From NCBI GenBank assembly GCA_965242865.1, contig CBDETK010000013.1, positions 4,768,001-4,832,000 of the forward strand: a stretch of DNA of 64,000 bases, written 5' to 3'. Source of the DNA: Candidatus Latescibacterota bacterium. GTDB lineage: Bacteria; Latescibacterota; UBA2968; UBA8231. This document shows positions 9,183-46,208 of this stretch, one piece after another. How positions within the stretch are numbered: position 1 is the first letter of the stretch; each line of letters begins with the position of its first letter. A program made the translations under genes and the position numbers. The notes beneath the pieces are model-generated. The model was not told where the DNA came from. It was given only the letters and a program-made list of their open reading frames with translations, and searched no databases.

Positions 9183-9193
9183 GGAGAAAATTT

Positions 9194-11527: not shown

Positions 11528-11536
11528 GAGACCATT

Positions 11537-11989: not shown

Positions 11990-12010
11990 CCAGAGGAGGA
12001 CGCTACCATC

Positions 12011-13740: not shown

Positions 13741-13989
13741 AATTGCCGCTATGCGCTATAAGGGGGACGGCACGGGGGCCGTCCCTTACAGCATTTTGCG
13801 TTGGTGTGGAGCGGTCGCTGTACGGGACGGCATGGAGGCCGTCTCGCACAGCACTTTGTCGTCAGGTATGAAGTGGCCGCTGTACGGGATGGCCCCCGTG
13901 CCATCCCGTACCCAATCACCAATCCAATCAGAAAACGGAGGCAAAAAAATGCCGCTGTACGGGACGGCCCCCGTGCCGTCCCGTACAGC
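13741..13989. repeat. Cluster of four REP-like palindromes flanked by 21-bp direct repeats (13720-13740, 13990-14010)
   Basis: gctGTACGGGACGG-cccccgtg-CCGTCCCGTACagc variants in both orientations; flanks atgagg(g/c)tggctagggagtag. Confidence 0.85.
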
Positions 13990-14013
13990 ATGAGGCTGGC
14001 TAGGGAGTAGGAT

Positions 14014-15756: not shown

Positions 15757-15775
15757 TCGGCCAAAGGAGATACTC

Positions 15776-17524
15776 ATGACGACGGAGCACATTCTACTGA
15801 CCAGTCTGGGGGTGAGACCTCAGGAAACGAAATACCAGTGGGGCGAGCGAACAGTTACCGCATCGTTTACCCCACTGGCATTAGTGCAACTTCTCGACCC
15901 GTCGCAGCAGCCCAATCGCGTTGTCGCGGTGGTCACGCAAGAGGCGAAAGCCAAAACGTGGCCGCTCTTTGAGAAGGGAATTCATCAAACGCTCGGTTTC
16001 GCGCCCGCAGGGATTGATATTCCCGACGGAAATAGCTCTGACGAAATTCGCCAGATTCTCGAATCCGTAGCCGCGTGCGTTCGAGAAGGCGCGGAACTCA
16101 CGCTCGATGTCACGCAAGGGTTGCGGCACTTTCCATTCATCTTTTACGCTTTGGCACTCTACCTTAAATCGCTTCGCAACGTAAAAATTCGCGGTGCTTA
16201 CTACGGCATGATAGAAGGGCTTTCAAAAGACGCGCCCAAGCCGATCATTGACCTTCGACCATTACTCGAATTGCCGGAGTGGTTCCATGCGGTGCGCATG
16301 TTCCGCGATCAGGGGACGACCTTGCCCATAGCAGAACTGCTTGAGCCGTTGGGATGTAGGCTAGAGAAGGAAACCGCGGAACTGTTCAAGGCTGGTAATC
16401 ATGCGGAGGGTCTAGAACGCAGAGCCCAAGTCAAGCAAGTCAAAGATGTCGTTGGTTGGCTTGAAAAGCGTTCGTTTGCTTATGAGTCTGCCTTGCCGCT
16501 CGAATTGGGAAGAGCGAGTCGGCTACTCAGCGATTCGATTAAGAACCTCACCTCTATGAAATTCGACGCGATCCCGCCACTTGCTAAAGAACTAACGGAT
16601 ACCATCGCCAGCGTGGCTGAAGACGCGGCCTTAGCAGGTAATCTGGCAAGAAAGAAGGGGGAATGGAAAACGAAAGCCTCTCTAGATACGGCGGAGTTAG
16701 AGCGTCAGGCTCAGATGATTGATTTGTACTTGGACCGGGACCAACTGCCGCTGGCGGCTGGTTTAATGCGCGAGTGGGTGGTCTCTTGGGCCGTATGGAA
16801 AGATGGAAATCAGCAGTGGCTAGACCGCAAAGTGCGCCGGCGGTATGAGCGTCGCCTCGGTGCTATTGGAGCCTTTGCCAGAGATAAGGCAAGCACACCA
16901 GCGCAGCAGGAGTTCGGCAACTTCTGGAATCAGTTGACCGATGATCTACGCAATGCCCTGCACCACCATGCCATGCGTGAAAAAGCACTTGAAGAGCCAC
17001 CCAAATCCCTTGAATCGGTGCGGTGCTTTTGGAACCGGCTGAGAGCGGGAGAGATCGACCTACCAGTGTTAGGCAGCGGTGGAGGTCGGCTGCTGCTCTC
17101 GCCGCAAGGGACGAAACCGGGTGTGTTGTTTTCAGCGTTAAAGGTCGCTCAACCCGATACCTGTCTGGTAATATGCTCAGCCACATCGAAAAGCAGCATT
17201 GGTGAAGCCAGCGAGCATGCTGGCTTTCAAGGTTCCATTGAGCAGATTGAACTGACCGATCCGCACGGCGATTTTAATAAAATCAAGGCGTTCGTGGAAC
17301 AGGCCCGTTGCCATCTGTTGAATGCTTACGAGGTGGTGGCTAACGTGACCGGCGGCACGACCCTGATGGGCCTGATTGTGCAACGGCTGGTTGAAGAGGC
17401 CCAAAAGCTGGATCGCCCGGTGCGACGCTTTGCCCTCATAGATCGTCGGCCTCCGGCCGAACAGGACCGCGATCCGTTTGTACAAGGCGAGCACCACTGG
17501 CTTGACGACCCACTAACCAAATAG
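15776..17524 (+). CDS. Csx1/TM1812-like effector: CARF - HEPN - second CARF-like domain
   Basis: LLTSLG and LDVTQGLRH (CARF); RNALHH (HEPN RxxxxH); LLLSPQGTKPG and VANVTGGTT (CARF). Confidence 0.8.
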   Translation: MTTEHILLTSLGVRPQETKYQWGERTVTASFTPLALVQLLDPSQQPNRVVAVVTQEAKAKTWPLFEKGIHQTLGFAPAGIDIPDGNSSDEIRQILESVAACVREGAELTLDVTQGLRHFPFIFYALALYLKSLRNVKIRGAYYGMIEGLSKDAPKPIIDLRPLLELPEWFHAVRMFRDQGTTLPIAELLEPLGCRLEKETAELFKAGNHAEGLERRAQVKQVKDVVGWLEKRSFAYESALPLELGRASRLLSDSIKNLTSMKFDAIPPLAKELTDTIASVAEDAALAGNLARKKGEWKTKASLDTAELERQAQMIDLYLDRDQLPLAAGLMREWVVSWAVWKDGNQQWLDRKVRRRYERRLGAIGAFARDKASTPAQQEFGNFWNQLTDDLRNALHHHAMREKALEEPPKSLESVRCFWNRLRAGEIDLPVLGSGGGRLLLSPQGTKPGVLFSALKVAQPDTCLVICSATSKSSIGEASEHAGFQGSIEQIELTDPHGDFNKIKAFVEQARCHLLNAYEVVANVTGGTTLMGLIVQRLVEEAQKLDRPVRRFALIDRRPPAEQDRDPFVQGEHHWLDDPLTK

Positions 17525-17744: not shown

Positions 17745-19358
17745 ATGAGTAGCGAATCGTTTGTCATTGTAGTTGATACCCCTTCTATCAAGCGGTATGT
17801 ATTTGGTACTGATTCCTTGAATGAGGTACGGGGTGCCAGTACTTGGCTGGATCGGCTAAATCGCGTCGAGATGAAACGGCGTTTGTGCGAATATCTCGGC
17901 GTGGAGCACGTGGAACAGATCTACGCCAACGGTGGATCGGCGCAGTTTGTAGTCTATCAATGCGACGAAAATACCGTGGAGAAGGCTTGCAAGAACATGG
18001 TCCAGTATGTCCGTGAGCAGACGAGCGGCGAAGTGCGAGTAGTTTACGGTATTGCGCTGCTCGAAGACGAGACATCCTATCAGGCGGCAGTGCAGATGGC
18101 GCATTTCCAGTTGCGCTGCCAACGCGAGATCGCAACTGGCCATCGCAGTACATCCTTGATGCCGATTATGATGGAATGCAAGTCGGCTTCGCATCTGCCG
18201 GCAGCTCATATTGCTGCTCGGGGCGCAGACGGTATGGCTATGTTGTCCAAGGCGAGTTATGAAAAGGATCGACATGGTCGCAACGCACATCGCCGTGGAC
18301 TCTGGGCCAAGTGGATGCAGCATTTGGCGGAGGTGGAGCCATGGCCAACGGAAGAGCAGTGGGACAAACTGCGGTGTTCGGACGTAGAGGAGATTGGCGA
18401 GCACTCGCGTGGCTACATCGGCGTGGTCTATGCCGATGGGAATGCCATGGGAAAAATCGTTCAAGCACTGGACCGACCAGAGACATTCCGCCAATTTAGC
18501 AAAATCGTCGATGAAAGCATTCGGAAGGCGTGTTTCACCGCACTCAGTCAAATCTCCCAACCGGAAGTTGAGCAAGTTCGGGAAGCTCTTGAGCATTCAG
18601 ACCCCCACTTCGAGCCCCTTGCCGCCGACATCTTGCTACTGGGCGGCGATGATTTGTTGGTAGCCGTTCCGGCCGACCGCGCCCTCGATTTTGCCTTGCA
18701 GGCCACAGAAGCGTTTGAACGCCTGACACGAGAGAAGGTTGCCGCTCTGCCAGATGCAAAAACTCAGCAGTTCTTCCGCGACCGCCTCGGCGATCAAGGC
18801 TTCACGATTTCTTGCGGCGTTGCCATTGCCAAAAGCAATTATCCGTTCTACCTTTCGCGGGACTTAGCCGAGCAACTGTTGAAAAACGCCAAGCGACAAG
18901 ACAGCCATGATCCGCAAAAAGCACAAGGGGCTGCACGCATTGATTTTCACGTCGTGGCCGGGGCCAATAGCCATGTTCTCAAAAAGGTGCGCGAGGACAC
19001 TTATCAAGAACTGACTAATGCACCGCGTACCCTTCGGCCTCTATCTCGTTCTCAGTTGGATACATTGCGCGGCACTGTACAGGAACTGCACAAAGTCGGG
19101 TTTCCGCGCAACAAATTGCACGAACTTCAGGAGGCGGCCTTGATAACGGAAGCAAAGCGGGCGGACTGGCACATTCGCAACATTTTCGTCCGTTGCCGCC
19201 ATGGGCAAGAGCGATCAGAACGCCGGGCGTTGTGGCAAGCGGTCGCCAATCTGTGTCCCGACGGGTATGAGTTTGATTTTCCGTGGTTGAAAAAAGAAGA
19301 CCAACGCCTTTTGTGCATAGCGGATCTGGTGGAAGCCTACGATTTATTCCAAAGGTAA
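17745..19358 (+). CDS. cas10: Type III-D Cas10 (no HD domain)
   Basis: DTPSIKRYVF, YANGG, YADGNAMG, LLGGDD, KNAK. Confidence 0.92.
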   Translation: MSSESFVIVVDTPSIKRYVFGTDSLNEVRGASTWLDRLNRVEMKRRLCEYLGVEHVEQIYANGGSAQFVVYQCDENTVEKACKNMVQYVREQTSGEVRVVYGIALLEDETSYQAAVQMAHFQLRCQREIATGHRSTSLMPIMMECKSASHLPAAHIAARGADGMAMLSKASYEKDRHGRNAHRRGLWAKWMQHLAEVEPWPTEEQWDKLRCSDVEEIGEHSRGYIGVVYADGNAMGKIVQALDRPETFRQFSKIVDESIRKACFTALSQISQPEVEQVREALEHSDPHFEPLAADILLLGGDDLLVAVPADRALDFALQATEAFERLTREKVAALPDAKTQQFFRDRLGDQGFTISCGVAIAKSNYPFYLSRDLAEQLLKNAKRQDSHDPQKAQGAARIDFHVVAGANSHVLKKVREDTYQELTNAPRTLRPLSRSQLDTLRGTVQELHKVGFPRNKLHELQEAALITEAKRADWHIRNIFVRCRHGQERSERRALWQAVANLCPDGYEFDFPWLKKEDQRLLCIADLVEAYDLFQR

Positions 19359-19373
19359 AGAGGAGTTTTGCAG

Positions 19374-20117
19374 ATGAAACCCCAACGCTTGGACTTGTGT
19401 TACCGCATTGTTTGGAACGGACGTTGGCACGTCGGCAGTGGCTATCAATCGGCAGTGGCGGATCGCTTGTTGCGACGACTGCCTGATGGATCCTCCTTTG
19501 TTCCCGGCTCCCAGATCAAAGGCGTTCTGCGCCACCACTGCGAACGGTTGGCTTTAGCCTTGGACCTCAAAGCAGTTGACCCACATGCGAGTAGCGAGGA
19601 ACACAACCAGCATCTGGTAAAGCATTTCGCTCCATTGGCGAAGTCAAAGCTGATGGTCGATCGGCTGTTTGGCAGCCGCTACCAAGGAGAATGCTTGTTT
19701 GTAACAAACGCCGCGCCCGCATCGTCTGATAAGAAAAACACTACCTCCGTACAGGCGCGGACAGCCATAGATCGCGTCACGAGAACTGTGATGGAGAAAC
19801 ATTTGTTCACTACCGAACTAACGGAAGGCGACATTGCGTTACAGGGAACGATTCGCGCTCGGCATCCCGCTGATGTTCTGACGCAGGAGGACGATGGGTT
19901 TCCGTATGAATATAGTCTCCTGATAGCTGGCCTGCTGTCTCTCGATGCCTTGGGCGGCGACAAGAGCGTTGGCTTGGGGCGGTGTAGGATTGATTTCGAT
20001 GAGGAATCATTGCGTTGGAACGATGAGAGCGTCTCCAAAGAATATGCCCTTCAGAGCTTTGAAGATGAAGATTGGAACGATTGGGTGGATATTCTACGCG
20101 AGGAAGCAACGCCATGA
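19374..20117 (+). CDS. Type III-D Cas7-group RAMP
   Basis: WHVGSG, VPGSQIKGVLR, LGGDKSVGLG. Confidence 0.9.
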   Translation: MKPQRLDLCYRIVWNGRWHVGSGYQSAVADRLLRRLPDGSSFVPGSQIKGVLRHHCERLALALDLKAVDPHASSEEHNQHLVKHFAPLAKSKLMVDRLFGSRYQGECLFVTNAAPASSDKKNTTSVQARTAIDRVTRTVMEKHLFTTELTEGDIALQGTIRARHPADVLTQEDDGFPYEYSLLIAGLLSLDALGGDKSVGLGRCRIDFDEESLRWNDESVSKEYALQSFEDEDWNDWVDILREEATP

Positions 20118-21358
20118 ACAAAGTGCCCGTAACAGCAAAATTGCTCGCGCCGGTAGTCATCAAACGCTACCGACAATCTGAACGCTCCGAAAGCGTACAT
20201 TCCGTGGCAGGGACGCTAGTGCGTGGCGCTTTGGCTGCCCTCTATTTGCAGCGTCACGGACAGGCCGACGCCACGTTCAATCGCTTGTTCCTGAACGAAG
20301 CCTCGTGTCGCTTTGGGCCATTGGACCCTGGCCCCAAGCACTTTCCCTTGACTGCTGCGTCCTGCAAACGCGAACGCAGAAAACACGCATTCGTGGACCA
20401 ACTGTGGTTCCGCATCGCTCAACACCACCTCGCGGGCCGCGTACCAGAAAACGCTGCCACCGCTTGGCGTCGATGTAGAGAATGCGAGGCCGATTTGAAG
20501 GGACATGACGGCTTTTGGCAACAACGAGAAAACGGTCATCTGTGCGACATGAGCATTGACACTCAAGTCGCCGCTCATGTCGGCATTGATCGCCAGACCG
20601 CCACCGCCGCCGAATCTATATTTTACACGCTTGAATCTATGTCGCCTTCTTGCAAGAAAGTAGATCTGCACGGCTGGCTCATGGCCGATGCCGAGGCACT
20701 CGCCGCCTTGGAGCAACTCTTGCAGGATGAAGACAGCAGCATCTCGGTCGGCCATCACCGCACACGCGGCTATGGCGATGTGCGCTTAACATTAGGTGAA
20801 CCTGTTGACAGAGACGATTCGCCGGTGCGCACGGAGGATTGGAAGCAATGGAGCCGCGATCTGATCGCCGATCTCGGCTCTCCACCGATCTCGGTTCCCG
20901 ACCTCGATCCAGAGGATTTTTACTTCGGTCTGTCATTTCCGACGGGTGCTGTGTTCGTCGATCGTTTTCTGCGCTATACCACGGATCCGGCCGACGTGAT
21001 TCCTTGGTTGCCCACTATGCCTTCTGTTGACGTTGCGTTTCCGCTAAAAGACCGCCCTGCTCGGCAACTTCCAGCGGGGGGCACAGTCCGCTGGATTACT
21101 GCTGTAACTCGGCACGAACGCCTGCGCGGCTGGAATGCGGCTCACGGCTTGCCGCGTCAGGATGAGTGGGTCGTAGCACGTGGTGCGGTCTATGTCTATT
21201 GCTTTCAGGGCACTGCCGAAGAGCGCGAAGCACTCATTGAGCGACTCGCTACTTTGTCCGAAGACGGCGTCGGGCTGCGGCGCAATGAAGGCTTTGGCAC
21301 GGTGATGGTGTCGGATGATTTCCATTGTCGATTTCACAAACAGGAGGTGCAGTCGTGA
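20114..21358 (+). CDS. csx10: Type III-D RAMP Csx10
   Basis: GTLVRGALA, GHHRTRGYG, GVGLRRNEGFG. Confidence 0.85.
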   Translation: MNKVPVTAKLLAPVVIKRYRQSERSESVHSVAGTLVRGALAALYLQRHGQADATFNRLFLNEASCRFGPLDPGPKHFPLTAASCKRERRKHAFVDQLWFRIAQHHLAGRVPENAATAWRRCRECEADLKGHDGFWQQRENGHLCDMSIDTQVAAHVGIDRQTATAAESIFYTLESMSPSCKKVDLHGWLMADAEALAALEQLLQDEDSSISVGHHRTRGYGDVRLTLGEPVDRDDSPVRTEDWKQWSRDLIADLGSPPISVPDLDPEDFYFGLSFPTGAVFVDRFLRYTTDPADVIPWLPTMPSVDVAFPLKDRPARQLPAGGTVRWITAVTRHERLRGWNAAHGLPRQDEWVVARGAVYVYCFQGTAEEREALIERLATLSEDGVGLRRNEGFGTVMVSDDFHCRFHKQEVQS

Positions 21359-21777
21359 CCGTTTTGAACAACGACCTGATTCAAAAAACCGATCGCTATA
21401 TTGACGAGAATCACGAGGCGTTTTCCGAGTTGGGAAAGCGTTTCTTTGAGGTGTTTGACTACGACAAGGGGAACAACCGCATCAGCACACAGATCCGCAA
21501 TCTGCAACAAATTACCTGCTCAGCCACGCGCTTTGCGGATATTGAAGATTTCGTGGAAAATCAGATGGGTAAGGAACAAAAAGAACATAAGTGGAAAAGA
21601 CTGGGCGGCGACATTCTGAAACAGTTGGAGGAATTGCGTAGCAAGAGTCAAAAGCTCGATACCGACCCTGCCAACCAGATGGCTCTGCGGTTGCGTCTCG
21701 CCCGCGGCTGGGTGCGGGCCGTGGTCAGCGAATACCTCTACCAAGTCGCGTGCGATCAGATGGGAGGTGCCAAATGA
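21355..21777 (+). CDS. Putative small subunit (Cas11/Csm2 group)
   Basis: Short helical protein, STQIRNL motif, operon position. Confidence 0.7.
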   Translation: MTVLNNDLIQKTDRYIDENHEAFSELGKRFFEVFDYDKGNNRISTQIRNLQQITCSATRFADIEDFVENQMGKEQKEHKWKRLGGDILKQLEELRSKSQKLDTDPANQMALRLRLARGWVRAVVSEYLYQVACDQMGGAK

Positions 21778-22262
21778 CGCTTGTGGACTTACTGTCTGAT
21801 ACGACCTATCGACAACAGGGCAAGGAGCAACTGGATAAACTATTGGGTGACGGCAATCGATTCCCTGTGGAGCGTACCCAGATTTACGGCCTTCGCCAGA
21901 TCGCTCGCCAGCAGCCCGGAAAGGTCAAAGAGTTTGCCAACCATCAGCGCGAGCGTGCCCGACTTAAAGAGAAACAAGCTGAAGTTGAGTTTTGGACTTT
22001 GGTGGCGGACTTGTGTAGCGACTCGACCTCTGATTGGTCCGTGCTCAAAGAAGGCCATTCCCATCTTCCCGAAGAACTACGAGAAGAAAACATCCCCACA
22101 AAACAAGAATGTAAAACGAATGAAGATCGGGGTCGCCGCAATAAACTCAGGAGACAGCAACGGGAGTGGCTTGCACAGTGGGAAAACGAGCACATTCCAG
22201 CGTTTTTTGAGCGTTTCTGTACGCACGCTTCGTTCCGCTTAGGACTGGCAGAAAAGGAGTAA
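21774..22262 (+). CDS. Second small helical protein in the III-D operon (possibly Cas11-like)
   Basis: RTQIYGLRQIA; overlaps the upstream stop codon; RBS ggagg. Confidence 0.55.
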   Translation: MTLVDLLSDTTYRQQGKEQLDKLLGDGNRFPVERTQIYGLRQIARQQPGKVKEFANHQRERARLKEKQAEVEFWTLVADLCSDSTSDWSVLKEGHSHLPEELREENIPTKQECKTNEDRGRRNKLRRQQREWLAQWENEHIPAFFERFCTHASFRLGLAEKE

Positions 22263-22265
22263 GAC

Positions 22266-23108
22266 ATGATGAATTTCAGATTACAGCAAAAGAACCGGAT
22301 CACCGCGTCCCTCGTGTTCGATACCGCGTGGCGCATCGGCTCCGGTAGAGAGGGCGAGACCATGGGCGATTTGGGTGTGATGCTCGATCCCAAGGGCCAA
22401 CCCATCCTTCCCGGATCCTCGCTCAAGGGTAAATTGCGGAGCACCTGCGAAACCCTATCGCATGCCTTGGGGCTGAATGCCTGCATGTTGAATCACGAGG
22501 CAAGCCGCGTCAAATGCACCAGCGATGTCAACTACTATCACAAGGTCAGGGAAGCGTATCAGGAGACGCTACAAAAGGAAAAGGGACTCCAAGCCCGTCT
22601 GAAATGGATTGACGACCACACCTGTGACGTGTGCAAGCTGTTCGGCTCTCCCGTACAGGCTGGTCGGCTGTGGGTCAGCGACGGCATGTTGCAAGAGTGG
22701 GCGTCCGTTGTGCAGGTGCGCGATGGCGTGGTGATCGACCGAGACAGCCAGACAGCGGTCAATGGTCTCAAATACGACTACGAAGTCGTCCCGCCCGGTA
22801 GCAAATTTGAACTTTGCGTTGATCTCGAAAACCCGACCGATCGAGATATGGCCTTATTCGGCGCGGCTCTGTTTGAATGGCATGCTGGCAGCAGTATTGG
22901 TGGGTTTACGAGCCGTGGGCTCGGGCGTTTCCGCTTGGAAAATATCAAACTTTCCGGTGTTGACCTGAACGACACACAGCAGCGAGTGAGGTTTTTGACG
23001 GCAACAAAAGCGGAAGATCGCCTTTCCTATCAGGATGATTGGGAGACTTACTTTACCGAGCGCATCCAACGGCAACTAAAACCTACTACCGAAATTGAGG
23101 AGAGCTAA
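22266..23108 (+). CDS. Cas7-group RAMP (Csx7-like)
   Basis: PILPGSSLKGKLRS, CDVCKLFGS, RDGVVIDR, GGFTSRGLG. Confidence 0.9.
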   Translation: MMNFRLQQKNRITASLVFDTAWRIGSGREGETMGDLGVMLDPKGQPILPGSSLKGKLRSTCETLSHALGLNACMLNHEASRVKCTSDVNYYHKVREAYQETLQKEKGLQARLKWIDDHTCDVCKLFGSPVQAGRLWVSDGMLQEWASVVQVRDGVVIDRDSQTAVNGLKYDYEVVPPGSKFELCVDLENPTDRDMALFGAALFEWHAGSSIGGFTSRGLGRFRLENIKLSGVDLNDTQQRVRFLTATKAEDRLSYQDDWETYFTERIQRQLKPTTEIEES

Positions 23109-23110
23109 CC

Positions 23111-24073
23111 ATGTTGCGGAAATGGCTCTGTCAAGCTGACGTAAAGATCGCCATCGAGCCGGTTGACCCGGTGCTGATCAAAAGTGGCTACGCGACCATC
23201 GATGGCGCAGACATGGTGCCCGTATCGACGTTCAAGAACGGCAAGCGCATGTATTACTTCCCCGGCACATCGCTCAAAGGCGTACTCCGCAGCCATCTGG
23301 AGCGCATCGCCCGCACCTTGAAACAAGGCAGCGTGTGCCTTCCCTACTACGATTCCAAGAAGACCATTGCAATACCCGTTGCGGAGGAACAAAACTCTTA
23401 TGGCTGCGGGTATCGTTCACAGGGTGGCCGGGGCGAGGATACGGCGTCGGTCGCCTACGCCGATTCGTGCGCTGCGTGTCGCTTGTTCGGCTCGCTCAAG
23501 TTTGGCGGGCGTTTCAGCATCGGCGATGCTTACCCGCTAAAGGGGCATGAGCCTACGCCGCCGGAATCGCGCAATGGCGTGGGGATTGATCGCTTTACGG
23601 GTGGAACGGTGCCCGGTGTCCTGTTCGATTTGCAAGTACTGGTCGACGGAAAATTTGAAGCTAGCTTGCGGCTGACGAATTTTGAACTCTGGCAACTGGC
23701 CGCTCTCAACCTGTTGTTGGTCGATTTGCAAGACGAAATGATCGCCATAGGTTCGGGACGCAGCAGAGGGCTTGGTCGCGTCCGCAGCACCGTCACTTCG
23801 TATCGCCTGACTTATGTGCGGACCGTTGAGCATCTCGTGGGTTTGTACCAACTCGCGACTTCACAAGAGCAGGACGCCTATTCTTTGCACGACTGGACTC
23901 CTTCCACCCCTATTGATCTACCAGATGCTCAGGTACACGGCCTGCGCCGACAGTACGATCTGAAGGACGATTGGGACCAAAAATTGCAGGTGCTCACCCC
24001 GGCCTTTGAGTCCTTTTTGCAGTGGCATGGTGGACCTCAAGGCGACATCGCTAATCAGGGGACCCGATCATGA
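23111..24073 (+). CDS. Cas7-group RAMP
   Basis: FPGTSLKGVLRS, CAACRLFGS, GVGIDRFTGG, GSGRSRGLG. Confidence 0.9.
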   Translation: MLRKWLCQADVKIAIEPVDPVLIKSGYATIDGADMVPVSTFKNGKRMYYFPGTSLKGVLRSHLERIARTLKQGSVCLPYYDSKKTIAIPVAEEQNSYGCGYRSQGGRGEDTASVAYADSCAACRLFGSLKFGGRFSIGDAYPLKGHEPTPPESRNGVGIDRFTGGTVPGVLFDLQVLVDGKFEASLRLTNFELWQLAALNLLLVDLQDEMIAIGSGRSRGLGRVRSTVTSYRLTYVRTVEHLVGLYQLATSQEQDAYSLHDWTPSTPIDLPDAQVHGLRRQYDLKDDWDQKLQVLTPAFESFLQWHGGPQGDIANQGTRS

Positions 24074-24666
24074 TGGCTTTCTTGAAAGCGGCGGATTTAA
24101 CACAGAATAGCTTTCTGTCTCTGCTCGAAAATCTCCGCCCGCCCGACGCCGACAAATCCCGGGGGCACATCTGGCTGGAAGCCCCGGATGGCTGGGCTTT
24201 GGATTGGTGGGATTGGCAATCCGGCCTTAACGGCGATCTCCGTTGGTGTGGGGCGGGCCGCGAGCCAGTTCACGAATGTGCCAAGGACTGTCTGCGTCGC
24301 TCCACTGCCGGCCGGTTGTTTGCCCCCGATGGCGAGTTGCGTTGGCGCGTCATTCCCTCCTTGGGTCAATCGTGCTGGCGTGCGGTCTTTCTCGGCACGA
24401 CCGATTGGGTGAATGCGGTTCTGGAGGATCACTCTGACAGCCTGCATGATTTGAAGCCGCATCGGGACCGCTTTTTCCTTTGGGGCCAGCAAACCGCTGA
24501 GACGCCGGACGAATGGATCGAATTACGCATTCCGCATCGCTTCCGCTATCCGGTGAGTGGCAATCCTCGCAGCGTAAAAGTTGTCGTTGAACAGTGGAAC
24601 GACGAGATCGGCGAGCCTCACTTTGTCCGTCTGTGTGCCCTCGAACCTTATCAGGAGCAAGAGTGA
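24070..24666 (+). CDS. csx19: Type III-D Csx19
   Basis: GRLFAPDGELRW, FLWG, ELRIP, HFVRL; position before the last RAMP. Confidence 0.75.
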   Translation: MMAFLKAADLTQNSFLSLLENLRPPDADKSRGHIWLEAPDGWALDWWDWQSGLNGDLRWCGAGREPVHECAKDCLRRSTAGRLFAPDGELRWRVIPSLGQSCWRAVFLGTTDWVNAVLEDHSDSLHDLKPHRDRFFLWGQQTAETPDEWIELRIPHRFRYPVSGNPRSVKVVVEQWNDEIGEPHFVRLCALEPYQEQE

Positions 24667-25763
24667 TGCCTCAAGGCGAGACCTTCTGGAACCCCTATCG
24701 CTGGGTTACTGTCAGTAACCAACCCATTGAACGCGATGAGCCGCGTTATCATCATACCTCAAGCGGCCTTTCCGGCCGCCTCTGGTGCGAACTTGAGGCA
24801 CTGACCCCGTTGATTATCGGCGATGGTCGCGGCGAACTCATCAACTTTGTTCGCCACCGACATAATGAGCGTCCCTATATTCCGGCCACGTCGCTCAAGG
24901 GCGCAATGCGTTCCTTAGCCGAAGTCGTCGGCAACGCCGCCGTTCCGTTTTCAAAGGTTTCGGTTGATGCCCAACATGCATTGGCGCAGGCGCGAAAAAA
25001 TTCTCATTTCGACACCGTAGCCAGAACATTCGGCTACTTGGACGCTAGCCATGTCTTCGCTGGTTTGATTCGCTTCAGCGATGCGGAGATCTCTACGGAA
25101 GTGATGCCACCGAATAAGTGGCCGCAGTACAAAGTAGCTGTCGGCCAGCCCAAGCCGAGCCACAACGCATTTTATCGCCAAAAGAATCAACGCAAATTCT
25201 ACCATCATCACCCAAGAGTTCAGCAGCTCATCGAAGCACCTCCCAACATCAAGCAAATCGCCAACCTAAGACCCGCTCCACCCGGCACCTGTTTTAGCTT
25301 TACGGTGGACTTTGCAAATCTACGCGAGGCCGAACTCAATTTGCTGCTCTACTGCTTGGTGCTTGAAGAGGACGTCACCATCAAACTCAGCCCAGCGGCA
25401 TTGGATCCTGACGCTCAAGGGCCTGTCACATTACCCGGTCCGCTGCGTCATAAAATAGGCGGTGCCAAGCCGCACGGGGCTGGCTCTGTCCACATTTCCA
25501 TTGCGAAGATGGAACTACGCACGGACGCGATGGCACGCTATCGCGGCAGCGACCCTGTCGAGACATGGGAAGCAGAAGTTCTCAGCAGTGAACTCGACCG
25601 GCGCACCGCATCGTTTCGGGAGCGTGCCGATCAAACCATGCGAGAGTTGCGTTCTATGTTGATCTATTCTACTGACGATCCCAGAAAGCCTATTCGCTAT
25701 CCAACCTTTGGATGGTTTCAGAATACAAGCAATTCAAGCAGGCAGTTAAAACCTACGATTTAG
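24666..25763 (+). CDS. Type III-D RAMP (TIGR03986-like)
   Basis: FWNPY, LTPLIIG, PYIPATSLKG, RKFYHH, KIGGAKPHGAG. Confidence 0.88.
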   Translation: MPQGETFWNPYRWVTVSNQPIERDEPRYHHTSSGLSGRLWCELEALTPLIIGDGRGELINFVRHRHNERPYIPATSLKGAMRSLAEVVGNAAVPFSKVSVDAQHALAQARKNSHFDTVARTFGYLDASHVFAGLIRFSDAEISTEVMPPNKWPQYKVAVGQPKPSHNAFYRQKNQRKFYHHHPRVQQLIEAPPNIKQIANLRPAPPGTCFSFTVDFANLREAELNLLLYCLVLEEDVTIKLSPAALDPDAQGPVTLPGPLRHKIGGAKPHGAGSVHISIAKMELRTDAMARYRGSDPVETWEAEVLSSELDRRTASFRERADQTMRELRSMLIYSTDDPRKPIRYPTFGWFQNTSNSSRQLKPTI

Positions 25764-25802
25764 ATCGCAGAACACTTGATCTCCGAAAGGAAGTTGACGC
25801 GC

Positions 25803-26870
25803 ATGCCACGTTTACTCGTCACCACGGTCGGCACATCTCTGCTCACCAACCGCGATGATCGCCCGTGGGCGGGATGGAATGGACGGGGCGGTGACCCACT
25901 GCCCGAGGCCGCGGCTGTAGATGATTGGTTGGCTGGTGCAGATGCGGTTAAAGCCAGTGCCGAGACCAATACCTTACGAGCTATTGAAGCCCAAGCCTCG
26001 GATCATCTGCTCTTTCTGCACTCCGACACGCCGGAAGGACGCTTCTGCTCGGAGCGACTGCAACACTTCTACGCTGAGGTGGTGAAGTGCCGCGACATCG
26101 CCGGGCGTTCGCTAACCGCTTTGGGGTATGCCCACCCCAGTTTCTCGCAAAAGGGATTGAAAATCTTGGTGCAAGAGGCTATCGAAGCCGTGAAGCAGGC
26201 GCGTAATAAAACGCTTCAACCCGTGTTTTGCGCCACGGGTGGCTTCAAGGCCGAAATCGCCTTTCTCAATCTATTGGGTGCCTTGCTTGAAGTCGAGGTG
26301 TACTACATCCACGAGCAATTTCGAGAAATTGTTCGCTTACCTCGCTTGCCCTTGGGTTGGAATACGGAATGGGTGCTGCAACGCCAAAAATTTTTTGAAT
26401 GGATCGATGAAGAGCCGCGTCCGAGTGCGGAGGTGGCGAGCCGACTAAGAGCCGATCCAGAACTCCAGCCGCTCGTCGAAGATGCTGGCGATGGCTACTC
26501 GTTCCTCAATGCTGCTGGCGACTTGCTGTTTCGCGCTGCCAAAGAACTTGGCCCCCGTGCGACTTGGCCGGCTGCGGTGGCGAGTCCACCGGACGAAAAG
26601 GACGGCCTCTCCAGTGAGGGACACCACCGTCCGAGAGGTTGGGAGAATTTCGTCCAGCGTCTTTGTCAGATCGATTGCGTAAGCCGGGTTTCTTACGAGG
26701 AGGCCGCTTATGGCGGTCAAGAGGTTAAGATACTCGACCGTGCCAACGGCGTCATCGCGGTGCGATATGGCCCAAGGGGCGAGGAGTTGCCCTTGCGTGT
26801 TGAAACGTCTGCTCGCGGGGCGGCCCAAACGGAATTGGTTGAGGAATACATTGCACAGCGTATCCTATAG
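25803..26870 (+). CDS. APE2256-family CARF protein with C-terminal extension
   Basis: TTVGTSLL, SAETN, HSDTPEG, ATGGFKAE, YYIHEQF. Confidence 0.85.
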   Translation: MPRLLVTTVGTSLLTNRDDRPWAGWNGRGGDPLPEAAAVDDWLAGADAVKASAETNTLRAIEAQASDHLLFLHSDTPEGRFCSERLQHFYAEVVKCRDIAGRSLTALGYAHPSFSQKGLKILVQEAIEAVKQARNKTLQPVFCATGGFKAEIAFLNLLGALLEVEVYYIHEQFREIVRLPRLPLGWNTEWVLQRQKFFEWIDEEPRPSAEVASRLRADPELQPLVEDAGDGYSFLNAAGDLLFRAAKELGPRATWPAAVASPPDEKDGLSSEGHHRPRGWENFVQRLCQIDCVSRVSYEEAAYGGQEVKILDRANGVIAVRYGPRGEELPLRVETSARGAAQTELVEEYIAQRIL

Positions 26871-26983: not shown

Positions 26984-28015
26984 ATGCCTACCCTATACGT
27001 CACCGAACCTAGATCGGTCGTCCGGCGGTCAGTCGGCTCGGTCGTGGTAACGCTCACTGAGGACCCCGACGGGCCGGGGCCGCTGCCAGAGCGGCGGCGG
27101 CGTTTGCTCGAAGTCGAGCCGCACCGGCTAGAATTGATCGCCTTGGTGGGCCGCGTTCACATCACGGCCGACGCGCTCCAACTCTGCCTAGAGCAAGGGA
27201 TTGCGGTCGCTTGGCTGCGGGCCAATGGGAGCTTTATGGGCCGCCTCGTGCCGGAGCTGTCGCGCACGGCCGACCTGCGCTTGGCGCAGTTTCGCATGGC
27301 CGACGACGAGCCGCAGGCCCTAGCGCTGGCTCAGACTTTTGTCGCGGCCAAGCTCCACAATGCGGTTGGCCTGCTGACGGCTTTGCGCTCCAATCGCCGG
27401 GCGCAGCCTGCTTTGGGGCAGGCCATCGGCGCACTCAAGGCCATGGTCGATGGGGTGTCCGAGACGAAGAGCCGGGAGGTGCTGCTGGGTTTTGAGGGCG
27501 ATGCGGCTCGGCGTTATTTTACAGCACTGCGGCTTGGTTTTACCGGTTCTATCGCCTTTACGGGTCGCGCTCGCCGTCCGCCGCCGGACCCGGCCAATGC
27601 CTTGCTGTCGTTTGGCTACGTGTTGCTGGCCAATGTCTTGGCGAGCCTGCTGGAGGCCAGCGGCTTTGATCCCTACTTGGGTTTTATGCACGCGGTCCGT
27701 TCCGGGCGGCCCAGCTTGGCACTCGACCTTTTGGAGGAACTGCGGCATCCCGTCGTGGATCGCTTTGTGCTGCGAGTGTGCAACCGAGGCCAGTTGCGTC
27801 CCGAGCATTTTGAGACCGATGCCGAGCGGGGCGGTGTGCGCCTCACCCGTGCGGGGCTGCGGATTTTCTTTCGCACGTGGGAAGCCTTTATGGACGCCCC
27901 GCTACCGGGGATTGGCGAAGAGTTGTCGCCGGAAGAATTGCTGCGCCGTCAGGTTGACCGCTTGGCGGCCCATCTGCGCGACCAAGTGCCGTACCAACCG
28001 TTGCTGTTGCGCTGA
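26984..28015 (+). CDS. cas1: CRISPR integrase Cas1
   Basis: LLGFEGDAARRYF, RRPPPDPANALLSFGY, DPYLGFMH, LALDLLEELR. Confidence 0.97.
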   Translation: MPTLYVTEPRSVVRRSVGSVVVTLTEDPDGPGPLPERRRRLLEVEPHRLELIALVGRVHITADALQLCLEQGIAVAWLRANGSFMGRLVPELSRTADLRLAQFRMADDEPQALALAQTFVAAKLHNAVGLLTALRSNRRAQPALGQAIGALKAMVDGVSETKSREVLLGFEGDAARRYFTALRLGFTGSIAFTGRARRPPPDPANALLSFGYVLLANVLASLLEASGFDPYLGFMHAVRSGRPSLALDLLEELRHPVVDRFVLRVCNRGQLRPEHFETDAERGGVRLTRAGLRIFFRTWEAFMDAPLPGIGEELSPEELLRRQVDRLAAHLRDQVPYQPLLLR

Positions 28016-28025
28016 GGAGTCTTGC

Positions 28026-28313
28026 ATGTCTCGCTTTGTCGTGTGCTACGATGTGGCCAACAGCACCCGCCGCTACAAGGTGGCCGCCTGCTTGGATGGG
28101 TATGGCGACCGCGTGCAGGACAGCGTATTCGAGCTGCCAGTCAATCGCCTCCTCTTGGATCAATGCCTAGCCGAGGTCGTTGGCCTAATCAATGCGGCTG
28201 AGGACAGTGTGATCATCTATCGGCTCTGCGCGGCCTGCGAGAAAGAGCGGGTCTATTTGGGCGTGGGCGAACAAGGCGCCCATATTGGCGAGGAGGATGT
28301 ATTCATCGCATGA
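28026..28313 (+). CDS. cas2: CRISPR-associated Cas2
   Basis: VVCYDV, YGDRVQDSVFE, EDSVIIY. Confidence 0.95.
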   Translation: MSRFVVCYDVANSTRRYKVAACLDGYGDRVQDSVFELPVNRLLLDQCLAEVVGLINAAEDSVIIYRLCAACEKERVYLGVGEQGAHIGEEDVFIA

Positions 28314-28506
28314 ACAGTCGTAACCTCGGATGGCCCGTCTATTTCCTCGGAGTTACGAATTTGGCTAACCGATTGAAATTTCTGCAATTCGGTATCATCA
28401 GCCGGATCGAAGACCGCCGTGATAGGCGTTGTTCGTCGCGCTGGCCACTCGATTACGAAAAGTGTTCCCGTAACCTCTTGCAAGACAAGGAGAACTATGG
28501 CATACT
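28314..28506 (+). promoter_or_regulatory. Probable CRISPR leader
   Basis: Relatively AT-rich segment between cas2 and the first repeat. Confidence 0.7.
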
Positions 28507-31500
28507 ATTTGAAGTGTTGACCCGATTTCTAGGGGATTGAAACTCAATGAAAAAGTAATGCACCAAAGAGCAACGGTATTCAGATTTGAAGTGTTGACCC
28601 GATTTCTAGGGGATTGAAACTGCTCGCCATCGACCAAGACGGCGGACAACCCGAAGCGATTATTTGAAGTGTTGACCCGATTTCTAGGGGATTGAAACTC
28701 ATGGGGGCGTTGATGGGGGATGGGATTTAATGGATACGCATTTGAAGTGTTGACCCGATTTCTAGGGGATTGAAACGAAGAGAGGCATGACGCACCCAAA
28801 GAGGCAGAGCTAGCCCATTTGAAGTGTTGACCCGATTTCTAGGGGATTGAAACGGGTGTGATTGGATTTTGCTTGCCGCGCCGCGCCTTGACAATTTGAA
28901 GTGTTGACCCGATTTCTAGGGGATTGAAACTATCCGCATCGCGGATTGGCACATTCAAATTCGCAACATTTGAAGTGTTGACCCGATTTCTAGGGGATTG
29001 AAACCGGTGGGCGACTTCGACCGCGCGGCTGAGGAGATGCTCGAATTTGAAGTGTTGACCCGATTTCTAGGGGATTGAAACAAATATGCACTTGACGCTC
29101 TAAATCAAATGCCGCGCACAAATTTGAAGTGTTGACCCGATTTCTAGGGGATTGAAACGAAAAGGCAAAAACCGCTTGACCAACGTGAGAGGGTTGTTAT
29201 TTGAAGTGTTGACCCGATTTCTAGGGGATTGAAACCCCTTTTTTTTAACGTATTGCGGGGCAATCGTTTATGCCATATTTGAAGTGTTGACCCGATTTCT
29301 AGGGGATTGAAACAACACGCCGCCGCGCCCCAAACTCCGAAGTCCTTAGGATTTGAAGTGTTGACCCGATTTCTAGGGGATTGAAACCCGGCACCACCAT
29401 CAGCGTAGTGGTGCTCATTGGCCTTAATTTGAAGTGTTGACCCGATTTCTAGGGGATTGAAACGGCTGCGCCCGCATTTTTGCGATCAATTCTTTGTGCG
29501 TCATCATTTGAAGTGTTGACCCGATTTCTAGGGGATTGAAACTAAGGGAGGGGTTATCCAGCAGTAAGGAACCAGCGTCGAATTTGAAGTGTTGACCCGA
29601 TTTCTAGGGGATTGAAACGGTTCATCTCCCCCTTGCGCGCCATCCTCACGGGTTTGCTATTTGAAGTGTTGACCCGATTTCTAGGGGATTGAAACCTTAA
29701 CGTAGTGGCTCGCCGTCTGGTCCAAGTGGACATAATTTGAAGTGTTGACCCGATTTCTAGGGGATTGAAACGGTCCACGCCAGCAGACTGGGCTTCCACG
29801 CTGGCGGCGCAATTTGAAGTGTTGACCCGATTTCTAGGGGATTGAAACTGTTCATCCTCCGCACCGTCCGCGACGCGCGGAGCGCGACATTTGAAGTGTT
29901 GACCCGATTTCTAGGGGATTGAAACGGCCCTATTTTTGTGCTGTTGACTTACACTCTTTAGTGTAATTTGAAGTGTTGACCCGATTTCTAGGGGATTGAA
30001 ACCGGCGGATCAGTGGCGGCCACCGTTGGTTACATCGTGGTATTTGAAGTGTTGACCCGATTTCTAGGGGATTGAAACATAGACGCCGGCCCGACACGCG
30101 CACACGGAGAATTGAGATTTGAAGTGTTGACCCGATTTCTAGGGGATTGAAACATGATGAGAGCAAAGCCGCCCCCGAGCGCGAGTACCATTTGAAGTGT
30201 TGACCCGATTTCTAGGGGATTGAAACCACAAACAAGCCCTTCGGGCTTGTCTCCAGCCCTGTTGTTATTTGAAGTGTTGACCCGATTTCTAGGGGATTGA
30301 AACATACTTTCAAAGTTTCCTGCCTTGAAATTCTGAGCGTGGTATTTGAAGTGTTGACCCGATTTCTAGGGGATTGAAACTCGAATACCTTGAATGCGAT
30401 GACGGCCATGACGAGAGATTTGAAGTGTTGACCCGATTTCTAGGGGATTGAAACTTTCTCAGATTCATGGAGTGACGCTTCGAATGTGCTATTTGAAGTG
30501 TTGACCCGATTTCTAGGGGATTGAAACAAGGAGCGGTTCCCGTGGAGCAAAGCCCTTTCTCAGAACCATTTGAAGTGTTGACCCGATTTCTAGGGGATTG
30601 AAACCGAGGAGCTGCTGGGGGCGAAATTGATTTAAATACGCATTTGAAGTGTTGACCCGATTTCTAGGGGATTGAAACGACGTATATGATGGCCGAGTTG
30701 GCGCACCGTGTGGTCGAGCGTGGCGGCATTTGAAGTGTTGACCCGATTTCTAGGGGATTGAAACCCCGATCAGCGCATGGCTATCCGCATCCTGCATCCA
30801 AATTTGAAGTGTTGACCCGATTTCTAGGGGATTGAAACATAGATCCGCCGGCCGCGGCGATAATGGGTGATCGGCTCCATTTGAAGTGTTGACCCGATTT
30901 CTAGGGGATTGAAACATCCCGATGGATGATGGCTATCTGCGATTCGGGGATGCGATTTGAAGTGTTGACCCGATTTCTAGGGGATTGAAACCCACACGTT
31001 CCCGATAGCGATCTCCGCAGCACCGCTGTTGTATTTGAAGTGTTGACCCGATTTCTAGGGGATTGAAACATCTGGTTGCCCATAAGCATAATCAGACTCG
31101 CAGCCGACATTTGAAGTGTTGACCCGATTTCTAGGGGATTGAAACCGTGTGAGTGTGAGTGGGTTATTCAAAGCATCGATATTTGTTATTTGAAGTGTTG
31201 ACCCGATTTCTAGGGGATTGAAACTGGGCTTTAGGCCGGATGAGGCGAGGCCATCGGACGACATTTGAAGTGTTGACCCGATTTCTAGGGGATTGAAACT
31301 CGCCCTTTGGTTTGCCGCCACGCCCGCCAGCGCGGTCAACCCATTTGAAGTGTTGACCCGATTTCTAGGGGATTGAAACGGTCGCAGTGCTGTTCTCGCC
31401 AGCGATCCATCGGTTCACATTTGAAGTGTTGACCCGATTTCTAGGGGATTGAAACCGGACGAACACGACGACCTGATCGAGATAGCCGCCCGCTGTCTGG

Positions 31501-32849
31501 TCAATTTGAAGTGTTGACCCGATTTCTAGGGGATTGAAACCGGGACAGGTCGTCGGCGGCAAACTGTCGCCGCAAGTAGAATTTGAAGTGTTGACCCGAT
31601 TTCTAGGGGATTGAAACACAGATGCTGAGAGCCGTTGCAGCCAACTAATCGACATTCGATTTGAAGTGTTGACCCGATTTCTAGGGGATTGAAACCACCG
31701 CCTGTGCGCCTTGTGGAACGATGCGGGCCCGTGGGATTTGAAGTGTTGACCCGATTTCTAGGGGATTGAAACTCGGTCGATCCCGAAACCTACGGCAAAC
31801 TACAGCCGTACATTTGAAGTGTTGACCCGATTTCTAGGGGATTGAAACTTCGAGCACCCATCTTTGTCCATTCGATCTTCTGCACTTCATTTGAAGTGTT
31901 GACCCGATTTCTAGGGGATTGAAACTGGGCGATCCGATAGACCCCACCAACACAAACTCCTCTGAAAATTTGAAGTGTTGACCCGATTTCTAGGGGATTG
32001 AAACCAGCGGCCGGCCGGATGGGCGAATGTGCTCGCTGCTAGACATTTGAAGTGTTGACCCGATTTCTAGGGGATTGAAACTGCATTTCTTCAATCCGCC
32101 GCGCTACATGAAGTTGGTCGATTTGAAGTGTTGACCCGATTTCTAGGGGATTGAAACCGCGATCGGTGCTTGGGACAACGGCGCGCTCTTGGCCGCATTT
32201 GAAGTGTTGACCCGATTTCTAGGGGATTGAAACGCGTCACCCCGTCCGCATCCCGCGCCGGTGCGCGTTTGATTTGAAGTGTTGACCCGATTTCTAGGGG
32301 ATTGAAACATGTGGACCCGGGCAGCGACAGGGTCATTCACGGGCAGGGATTTGAAGTGTTGACCCGATTTCTAGGGGATTGAAACTTGAAGTGCGTGCGG
32401 CAAATCAGGCCGCCCGGGTGCTCTAATTTGAAGTGTTGACCCGATTTCTAGGGGATTGAAACACCCTGCATGGCGCGTGGAAACGAGGGGAACAATTCAC
32501 GGATTTGAAGTGTTGACCCGATTTCTAGGGGATTGAAACCGCGCCAAAAGCGTCTTCAATCCGCTGCAAGTTCGTCTCAAATTTGAAGTGTTGACCCGAT
32601 TTCTAGGGGATTGAAACCCGATAACCCATCCGACAACATCGCCAACACAAACGGATAAATTTGAAGTGTTGACCCGATTTCTAGGGGATTGAAACCCGAC
32701 CGCGACCCTTACTGGGCAGCAAAACCGCCATCTGCATTTGAAGTGTTGACCCGATTTCTAGGGGATTGAAACCGAACCAACTACGCATCCTCGAATCGAA
32801 ATCGGAAAATCCATTTGAAGTGTTGACCCGATTTCTAGGGGATTGAAAC
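28507..32849 (+). CRISPR. CRISPR array: 57 repeats of 37 bp and 56 spacers (about 36-49 nt), manual count
   Basis: Identical repeats ATTTGAAGTGTTGACCCGATTTCTAGGGGATTGAAAC; the ATTGAAAC 3' tag sets + orientation. Confidence 0.99.
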
Positions 32850-45284: not shown

Positions 45285-46208
45285 GAAGCCTTTTTAAAAC
45301 TCCTTTTTTGCTTGGATTTGACGTTGGCGTATTCACCGCACCCCTTCAGGTTTCGCCTAAGACCCCTGAACGAAAGGTCTCCGATGAGTACGCCCTATCA
45401 ATATCCGACCGACCTAACAGACGCGCCATGGCAGCGGCGGTCTCCCCTCGTACCCTCTCGTCGTTGGCGTCGGGGGGGTCCGGGTCGTCCTCCCCGTACT
45501 CTACGTTTGGTGCTCAATGGGATTCTCTATCGAGCTAAAACCGGTTGCCCGGGGCCGATGCTACCGCCGACGTTTGGCCCTTGGCAAACAGTGTATGGAT
45601 ACTTCAACCGATGGCGGCGAGCCGGACCCTGGCAGCGGATATTGGACGCCTTGACCCGCCAACAGCGCACCCGTCGATGCCGCCGGCCAACCCCTTCGGC
45701 CGGCGGCATCAACGCTCAGCGTGTCAAGACCGCCACGCAAGGCCGAGCTATAGGGTATGACGCCGGGAAACGGGTCAAAGGACGCAAACGCCACCTGTTC
45801 GTCGATAGCCAAGGCTCGATCCTGCAAGGCAAGGTCACCGCCGCCCACATCTCCGACGCCGACGGCTTAAAGGCCCTGTTGAGGGACTATTTCGCCGCCG
45901 GCGTCCAACGGCTGAGAAGCGTGTGGGTCGATGCCGGCTATCGAGGCGAAGCCCTCAACGCATGGGGCGCCGGATTAAAACAAACCTATAAAATCCGATT
46001 GGAGGGCAGCGAAAAACCACGACCCGGCTTTACTCTACTCAAACGCCGGTGGGTCGTAGAACGAACCTTTGCTTGGTTGGGCAACTATCGTATCCACGCC
46101 AAAGATTATGAGATCGTAACCGACAATAGCCAAGCCTTTATACATATCGTTATGATCCATCTGTTGCTCAAGCGAAAAAACAAAAAAAAAGAATTTTAAA
46201 AAGGCTTC
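45285..46208 (+). mobile_element. IS5-family insertion sequence (IS1031/IS427-like), transposase 45384-46199
   Basis: TIRs gaagcctttttaaaa(c/t)tc, TAA on both flanks; YPTDLTD, KGRKRH, RWVVERTFAWL; several conserved residues look altered. Confidence 0.92.

Follow-up and report, generated by a model that had tools for sequence, protein, structure and literature searches.

The stretch of DNA analysed here, a window of 64,000 nucleotides from a Candidatus Latescibacterota bacterium (assembly GCA_965242865.1, contig CBDETK010000013.1, positions 4,768,001 to 4,832,000, forward strand), carries a type III CRISPR (clustered regularly interspaced short palindromic repeat) array whose fourth spacer, hereafter S4, matches the chromosome of its own host. 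We consider it probable that S4 is a self-derived spacer which is tolerated through lost CRISPR RNA (crRNA) maturation, and that it is an inert passenger of the array and not a regulator. This reading is carried by the finding that S4 is one of many self-matching spacers in the array, and by a frameshift in cas6, the crRNA-processing gene of the locus. What we describe is known type III biology in an unusually clear natural example, and not a new mechanism.

The array, its leader and the two ends of the S4 match lie as follows (all positions are those of the window unless a contig is named).

28314-28506, + strand: leader, 193 nt, between cas2 and the first repeat
28507-32849, + strand: CRISPR array with 56 spacers; its 37-nt repeat, present in 57 copies, ends in ATTGAAAC
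28777-28816, + strand: S4, flanked by two perfect 37-nt repeats
51479-51518, - strand: degenerate copy of the S4 protospacer, 38/40 identical

The ATTGAAAC end of the repeat and the position of the leader both place the crRNA on the + strand. The initial annotation had described S4 as a leader-proximal, self-matching spacer of a type III array that is identical to the + strand at 51479-51518 in 38 of 40 positions, is antisense to a gene on the - strand there, and has a flank unlike the repeat-derived tag. All of this stands: a second match arose in none of 100 shuffles, RNA from the - strand would pair with the S4 crRNA, and the 8 nt upstream of the site (tgtacttg) agree with the ATTGAAAC tag in 1 of 8 positions, which would leave the tag unpaired. 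The site in the window is a secondary match, since a genome-wide BLAST search with all spacers returned at least 20 full-length chromosomal sites for S4 with 0-6 mismatches, the best of which, two at 40/40 and one at 39/40, all lie beyond the window. The suggestion that the true source might be a paralogue, to be sought by a genome search for a 40/40 match, is thus borne out by the two perfect chromosomal protospacers (G000:C13:1078832-1078871 and 1921832-1921871, G000 being this genome). An independent pattern search gave the same 10 S4 sites with up to 3 mismatches outside the array. With full-length chromosomal matches outside any CRISPR array, S4 is most likely self-derived. The last five nucleotides of the repeat, GAAAC, occur 2 nt upstream of both perfect protospacers (G000:C13:1921872-1921878 and 1078825-1078831), out of register with the tag, which is probably a coincidence.

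The initial annotation had singled out S4 and its target, a gene with leucine-rich repeat (LRR) and YWTD domains, and this emphasis does not hold up when the whole array is considered. If a self spacer is defined as one with a match of at least 28 nt outside the array, 18 of the 56 spacers belong to this class, all 18 being reproduced by a second tool, and the targets are ordinary chromosomal genes. Twelve of them are perfect over their full length (S4, S6, S8, S13, S14, S17, S18, S36, S43, S46, S47 and S48). Of the other six, S40 and S42 each differ by a single mismatch, S15 by one indel, S12 and S51 by two mismatches each and S16 by five. The 17 self spacers other than S4 are listed here with their positions, their targets and their orientation relative to the target mRNA.

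S6, 28931-28967: 1113-aa protein with a CHU_C match below cut-off, antisense
S8, 29082-29121: pheT, inside the coding region, 40/40, antisense
S12, 29388-29426: acrB-type pump, sense
S13, 29464-29505: intergenic site
S14, 29543-29581: DUF790 gene, across the stop codon, sense
S15, 29619-29658: DUF6785 gene, across the start codon, sense
S16, 29696-29734: DNA methylase-HNH gene, antisense
S17, 29772-29811: SLFN/AlbA_2 protein, sense
S18, 29849-29888: MFS/HEAT protein, sense
S36, 31225-31262: MacB/FtsX permease, sense
S40, 31541-31580: ion channel, sense
S42, 31696-31735: fadB-like gene, the same as for S47, sense
S43, 31773-31811: serA, sense
S46, 32005-32044: open reading frame (ORF) without family, sense
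S47, 32082-32120: fadB-like gene, the same as for S42, sense
S48, 32158-32196: sulfatase, sense
S51, 32386-32425: GNAT acetyltransferase, sense

No conserved protospacer-adjacent motif (PAM) was found in the flanks of 21 protospacer sites, namely those of these 17 spacers and four of S4, and at the same sites the flanks share at most 4 of 8 positions with the tag. The sites of S42 and S47 lie about 550 nt apart in one fadB-like gene, and those of S15 and S16, both imperfect, lie 3.4 kb apart; the two pairs suggest local acquisition bursts or DNA from a near-identical strain.

The self load of the array is far higher than in its relatives, as became apparent when the same search was run on four congeners' arrays with repeats of this family.

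G019: self spacers 0/65
G022: self spacers 1/54 (92% identity)
G044: self spacers 1/140 (part of a larger array)
G007: self spacers 3/31

Together they hold 5 self spacers in 290, as compared to 18 in 56 here (Fisher's test, p = 8e-12). In the type I-C array of the same genome, 0 of 40 spacers have a full-length chromosomal match. The leader sequence of the type III array is kept in G019, and no spacer is common to the arrays of this genome, G019 and a further congener, G008.

The orientation of the self spacers is uneven along the array. Among the 17 with a genic target, 13 are sense with the mRNA and four are antisense (S4, S6, S8 and the mismatched S16); the 13 should be harmless, since a crRNA in the same sense as the mRNA has no possibility of pairing with it. 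From S12 to S51, 12 of 13 genic self spacers are sense (p = 0.003), and the three self spacers nearest to the leader are the perfect antisense ones, S4, S6 and S8 (post hoc p = 0.006). In the congeners the genic self spacers are sense in four of four cases, with targets in transketolase, T9SS-type protein and TonB-dependent receptor genes and in one ORF without family; three of these genes have Pfam support, and the fifth congener self spacer is intergenic. The replication strand was considered as a cause of the sense bias, and spacer orientation agrees with the sign of the GC skew in about 11 cases to 6; the skew is noisy, and an agreement of this size neither explains nor excludes the bias.

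The cas genes and effector genes of the locus precede the array on the same strand.

6126-7056, + strand: cas6, frameshifted by a 2-bp (TT) deletion after 6785, N-terminal frame stopping at 6830
9194-17524, + strand: type III-A module with csm1/cas10, csm2, csm3, csm4, csm5 and a Csx1/Csm6-like effector
15776-17524, + strand: the CARF-HEPN-CARF Csx1/Csm6-like effector of this module
17745-26870, + strand: type III-D-like module with a short cas10 with GGDD, csx10, two csx7, a csx19-like gene and a TIGR03986 RAMP gene
25776-26870, + strand: CARF-RelE/DUF2103-type effector, in the type III-D-like module
26984-28015, + strand: cas1, full length, 343 aa, matching Cas1 models only
28026-28313, + strand: cas2, full length

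The deletion in cas6 is seen by alignment with three congeners, whose cas6 frames are open for 319-326 aa. It shifts the frame of the C-terminal ~90 residues, to which the glycine-rich loop belongs, splits the Pfam Cas6 domain over two frames, and leaves the PADLOC Cas6 profile covered only at positions 2-207 of 296. No other Cas6 was found with PF10040 or PF01881 in the genome, whose second CRISPR system is of type I-C and uses Cas5c; an intact Cas6, as a type III-A (Csm) system requires, was thus not detected with these models. The remainder of the locus is in better order. Csm1/Cas10 matches TIGR02578 at E = 1.6e-160 and carries HD at residues 14-15 and GGDD at 576, Csm2, Csm3, Csm4 and Csm5 match TIGR01870, TIGR02582, TIGR01903 and TIGR01899, all past cut-offs, and these proteins, the type III-D-like module and both CARF effectors look intact. 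No reverse transcriptase (RT) fused or adjacent to Cas1 was found among the locus ORFs that were scanned, the rest of the genome not having been searched for RT.

The frameshift also appears in independent assemblies. We compared contigs from public sequencing runs with window positions 2000-9500, and those of three runs, X1 (depth 157), X2 (14.5) and X3 (3.9), are identical to the window over 6246-9500 without a gap; since the same TT deletion is present in all three, it is not an assembly error of this genome. In a fourth run, X4, the dominant strain (depth 199, differing by 15 substitutions over 801 nt) carries an additional TT after 6785 and thus an intact cas6, and the two repeat-flanked spacers listed for it are absent from the present array. 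X1 holds at least S23, S25, S34, S42, S50, S53 and S54 and part of S7, among which S42 is a self spacer.

Some further observations concern the surroundings of cas6. At 2078-2317 there is a fragment of cas6 that contains stop codons, and four stand-alone copies of the CRISPR repeat are found upstream of cas6, at 2796-2833 (92%), 4243-4279 (100%), 5471-5508 (92%) and, in part, 5990-6015, spaced by AT-rich segments of 1.2-1.4 kb with ORFs, one of which (4570-5448) matches the PADLOC candidate defence family PDC-S31. The stretch 2078-6015 has the look of a set of gene cassettes flanked by repeats, or else of what is left of an array that was rearranged. Between cas6 and csm1 there is a restriction-modification pair, in which an N6_N4 DNA methylase is encoded at 6957-8279 and a Bpu10I-like endonuclease at 8283-9182.

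As for the target of S4, 19 of the 20 sites share the same flanks on both sides and lead into a ribosome-binding site (RBS), an ATG and a lipoprotein-type signal peptide. The protospacer lies within a conserved 5′ leader, at positions -76 to -37 relative to the start codon; read on the opposite strand, AAAGGAG, the ATG and the signal peptide come after a further 36 nt. The product is an LRR + YWTD lipoprotein of about 500 aa, and the family has roughly 25-30 gene copies. About 19 full leaders with 84-91% identity are present in the genome, along with about 10 further copies whose leader has another sequence in place of the middle module, and the conservation extends for about 500 nt upstream of the protospacer. 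In 30 further genomes of the genus, a search at up to 3 mismatches found no S4 protospacer, and only the distal and proximal parts of the leader, in diverged form, occur in 8 of the 30. By comparison of these genomes, the family appears to be chromosomal and its expansion specific to this genome, and because the expansion is confined to it, the target of S4 might conceivably be a recently amplified cassette. A miniature inverted-repeat transposable element was considered for the leader module and is ruled out, since every copy has the same place and orientation before a family gene and none stands alone. The search for a function of the leader as RNA gave little: the Rfam scan of the two perfect-match loci, L016 and L017 (E up to 1), returned only a chance snoRNA match of 18 bits, the fold of the 291-nt leader RNA is indistinguishable from that of shuffles (z = -1.2), and a scan of the leader for sigma-70 promoters and terminators found nothing usable on the gene strand. 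GC-rich palindromic units resembling repetitive extragenic palindromes (REP), of the GGGACGGCCCCCGTGCCGTCCCGTACAGC type, lie between csm4 and csm5 (13749-14010), and units of the same type recur in the distal LRR-YWTD leader (L016 980-1056).

The copy in the window is a damaged member of this family and consists of two parts.

50445-51455, - strand: LRR + YWTD coding part of a 5′-truncated paralogue, inside the mechanical ORF 50445-51719
51477-51693, - strand: LRR-YWTD leader fragment, middle module only, ~217 nt, 88% identity

The claim that an LRR/YWTD ORF lies at the target holds in so far as the mechanical ORF (50445-51719, - strand, 424 aa), which spans the 38/40 site, carries both domains (LRR_4 and Ldl_recept_b, i.e., YWTD). 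It fails for the protospacer itself, which corresponds to residues 67-80 of the ORF and hence to read-through of the non-coding leader fragment, and not to LRR/YWTD coding sequence. Residues 86-423 align with a paralogue at 77% identity, and the stop codon is at the homologous position, whereas no homology to the family proteins is seen over the first 85 residues. Missing from the window paralogue are the RBS, the ATG, the lipoprotein signal peptide and ~74 residues at the N-terminus of the family proteins; positions 1543-1807 of L016, the reference paralogue, have no counterpart in it. Since the ORF directly follows glycosyltransferase, Wzy and PGM/PMM genes on the - strand, read-through transcription into it from these genes is plausible. 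Beside the truncated copy are two transposase genes of the IS4/IS5 type (45312-46199 and 47202-48143) and a gene for a eukaryotic-type carbonic anhydrase (48723-49502).

We propose that the Cas1-Cas2 proteins of a type III system without a PAM would have captured S4 from the host's own LRR-YWTD 5′ leader, the multi-copy family presenting a proportionally large target that falls into the 5′-leader class of acquisition hot spots. A matured S4 crRNA would stand antisense to some 20 transcripts of the family, its tag unpaired, so that an active type III system should respond with the activation of Cas10 and of the CARF effectors; likewise, a processed crRNA of S8, perfectly antisense to pheT, should do harm, because the effector genes look intact. 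The frameshift in cas6 appears to be the simplest and most likely reason why these spacers are tolerated. Without Cas6 the pre-crRNA would stay unmatured and interference would be switched off, while adaptation could go on, since Cas1 and Cas2 suffice for it. As long as the system worked, only sense self spacers (S12-S51) would have survived; after the loss of cas6, the antisense self spacers S8, S6 and S4 could accumulate at the leader end, and the loss was perhaps itself favoured by selection because it freed the cell from an autoimmune spacer, S8 for example. This two-phase history, with the array as a natural record of sense-only self spacers and then of antisense ones, we infer from small numbers and put forward tentatively, as an order of events that seems to us slightly less likely than not.

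It may also be that all 18 self spacers post-date the loss of interference and that the sense bias stems from the acquisition machinery, for example from a preference that follows the direction of transcription or replication; S4 would still be inert. We regard this as rather doubtful, although it accounts better than the two-phase history for the high self load. A load of 32% fits unselected type III adaptation, in which new spacers are mostly host-derived according to the excerpts of the two studies used here (PMC8860593, PMC13575424), congeners with an open cas6 have only 0-10% self spacers, the neighbouring sites of S42/S47 and S15/S16 suggest bursts at local hot spots, and the ~11 to 6 agreement with the GC-skew sign amounts to a loose tracking of orientation. 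What such a history does not account for is the strand bias: the laboratory strain devoid of interference had none (53/47, in the excerpt of PMC8860593), whereas the spacers from S12 to S51 are sense in 12 of 13 cases. The uniformly sense genic self spacers of the congeners (4/4) and the clustering of the antisense ones at the leader end argue in the same direction. An S4 that comes from a foreign element with a homologous leader or gene, with the chromosomal matches being incidental, is the least probable origin of all. The initial annotation had allowed for a foreign or mobile source, and imperfect spacers such as S16 with its five mismatches, S12 and S15 would be in keeping with an origin in the DNA of a related strain or in a mobile element; but two chromosomal copies of the S4 protospacer are perfect, exact matches in IMG/VR number 0 each for spacers 4, 1 and 2, no match was found on the 12 small contigs of the assembly, and the leader module always precedes family genes in the same place and orientation and never occurs alone.

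The initial annotation had also proposed autoimmunity or the regulation of a eukaryote-like repeat protein, for which the system would have to be active, with crRNAs matured by a host RNase or by Cas5c and with S4 either repressing the LRR-YWTD family or causing ongoing autoimmunity. The S4 crRNA would indeed be antisense to a leader that ~20 genes share, the mismatches numbering 0-6 and the tag being unpaired; Cas10, Csm3 and the CARF effectors look intact, the window copy lies downstream of - strand genes with which it is probably co-transcribed, and maturation independent of Cas6 is known from other systems. We nevertheless hold an active S4 to be unlikely, because the sole detected cas6 is frameshifted, by a deletion that is identical in the contigs of three runs, and because next to S4 the array carries perfect antisense spacers against the essential pheT (S8, four spacers further from the leader) and against a large T9SS-type protein (S6). 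Nor is there a sign of conservation, as no spacer is common to the congeners and none of the 30 other genomes searched within the genus has the protospacer at up to 3 mismatches, and the leader has neither significant RNA structure nor an Rfam match beyond chance. The more far-reaching idea of a Cas6-independent S4 crRNA as one switch that silences a whole eukaryote-like LRR-YWTD surface-protein family seems very improbable to us. An active system could also leave its antisense self spacers harmless if their targets are untranscribed, with S4 perhaps matching a region upstream of the transcription start of the family. Type III systems require target RNA, and with no promoter or start placed in the leader, the positions -76 to -37 could be promoter DNA and not 5′ untranslated region (UTR). 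This, too, we consider improbable, since S8 lies inside the coding region of pheT, which is necessarily transcribed, the conservation over ~500 nt upstream of the protospacer suggests a transcript start further upstream, and the cas6 frameshift would be left unexplained.

Several points weigh against the tolerance of an inert S4 as we propose it, or against the history attached to it. The loss of mature crRNA is read from the sequence of the cas6 gene only. Cas6-independent maturation occurs elsewhere, for instance through RNase E in the III-Bv system of Synechocystis, and the type I-C repeat of this genome also ends in GATTGAAAC, such that cross-processing by Cas5c is possible. A recent loss of cas6 leaves the 13 sense self spacers unexplained, as compared to 0-3 self spacers in the congeners with an open cas6. 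The overall sense bias of 13:4 reaches only p = 0.049, the pattern of the three newest self spacers being antisense was spotted after the fact, and the orientations of S6 and S46 are derived from ORF length and GC3, with a Pfam match below cut-off or none. Furthermore, S4 is not among the 8 spacers listed for X1, its presence in X1-X3 is not established, and the cas6 allele and the array content, which lie 22 kb apart, are unphased.

The findings can be set beside known systems, of which we use excerpts of the published accounts, and the comparisons extend as far as these excerpts do. In the Streptococcus thermophilus III-A system (PMC8860593; Zhang, Garrett, Graveley, Terns, NAR 2021/22), acquisition depends neither on a PAM nor on orientation and draws mostly on the host genome, Cas1 and Cas2 suffice, and adaptation continues without the crRNA biogenesis genes. 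The coding-strand bias of the wild type arises there by counter-selection, the crRNAs of survivors being non-functional, and it is lost in the csm1-6 deletion strain (53/47). Promoters, 5′ UTRs and ORF starts are described as hot spots of type III acquisition (PMC13575424). Our array resembles that system in being PAM-less, in taking up host-derived spacers in either orientation and in the coding-strand bias of what survives. It differs in that the S. thermophilus data come from deep sequencing of transient laboratory populations, whereas here 18 of 56 spacers are fixed in a natural consensus array, and in having a natural cas6 frameshift together with three antisense spacers at the leader end.

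A second comparison is with cases of tolerance. The mutation or loss of cas genes is a documented route of survival from self-targeting spacers (review PMC6990116), and through the same review we know of six genome-targeting spacers in Lactobacillus acidophilus NCFM (Stern et al. 2010) and of escape mutants of the Staphylococcus aureus III-A system that tolerate self-targeting. As in these, several genome-matching spacers stand beside a disabled CRISPR-Cas system, but here the lesion is one 2-bp frameshift in the crRNA-processing gene, the effector and adaptation genes look intact, an intact cas6 allele persists in a close strain (X4), and the self-spacer load is three times higher. The RT-Cas1 type III system of Marinomonas mediterranea, which takes spacers from host RNA (PMC5576922), is similar in that a type III array can be filled from transcribed genes of the host, and dissimilar in its RT, as none was found fused or adjacent to Cas1 among the ORFs scanned here. 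In the literature on sponge symbionts and CRISPR self-targeting, judged by titles and the beginnings of abstracts, no such arrays were found; no wider search was made, and no priority is claimed.

Work in the laboratory predicts that PAM-less type III adaptation samples mostly host DNA and that autoimmunity purges spacers antisense to transcripts. Such a pattern is seldom seen in natural genomes, since self spacers amount to well below 1% of their spacers (0.4% in a 2010 survey, as cited in the excerpted review PMC6990116). The present array appears to show both halves, a sense-biased set of self spacers and perfect antisense ones at the leader end, one of them against the essential pheT, and the locus thus offers a natural test case for the price that type III systems pay for promiscuous adaptation and for the way in which they are lost. 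It also advises caution: before regulation is suggested for a single self-targeting spacer that matches a gene of interest, that spacer should be viewed in the context of the complete array and genome.

Two observations lie outside the window. The type I-C system is complete (cas3, cas5c, cas8c, cas7, cas4, cas1c, cas2) and has a 41-repeat array (G000:C13:3522935-3535982, L055), whose spacers B3, B4, B5 and B15 have partial matches to the small contigs C9, C12 and C6. On C9 and C12 these matches recur about 10.4-10.5 kb apart, and each of the two contigs is possibly a doubled circular element of ~10.5 kb, a plasmid or phage. About 60 kb upstream of the window, at G000:C13:4706319-4708986, there are tandem units of ~99 nt, which are not a CRISPR array and which, by eye, look like ankyrin-type protein repeats of eukaryote-like character.

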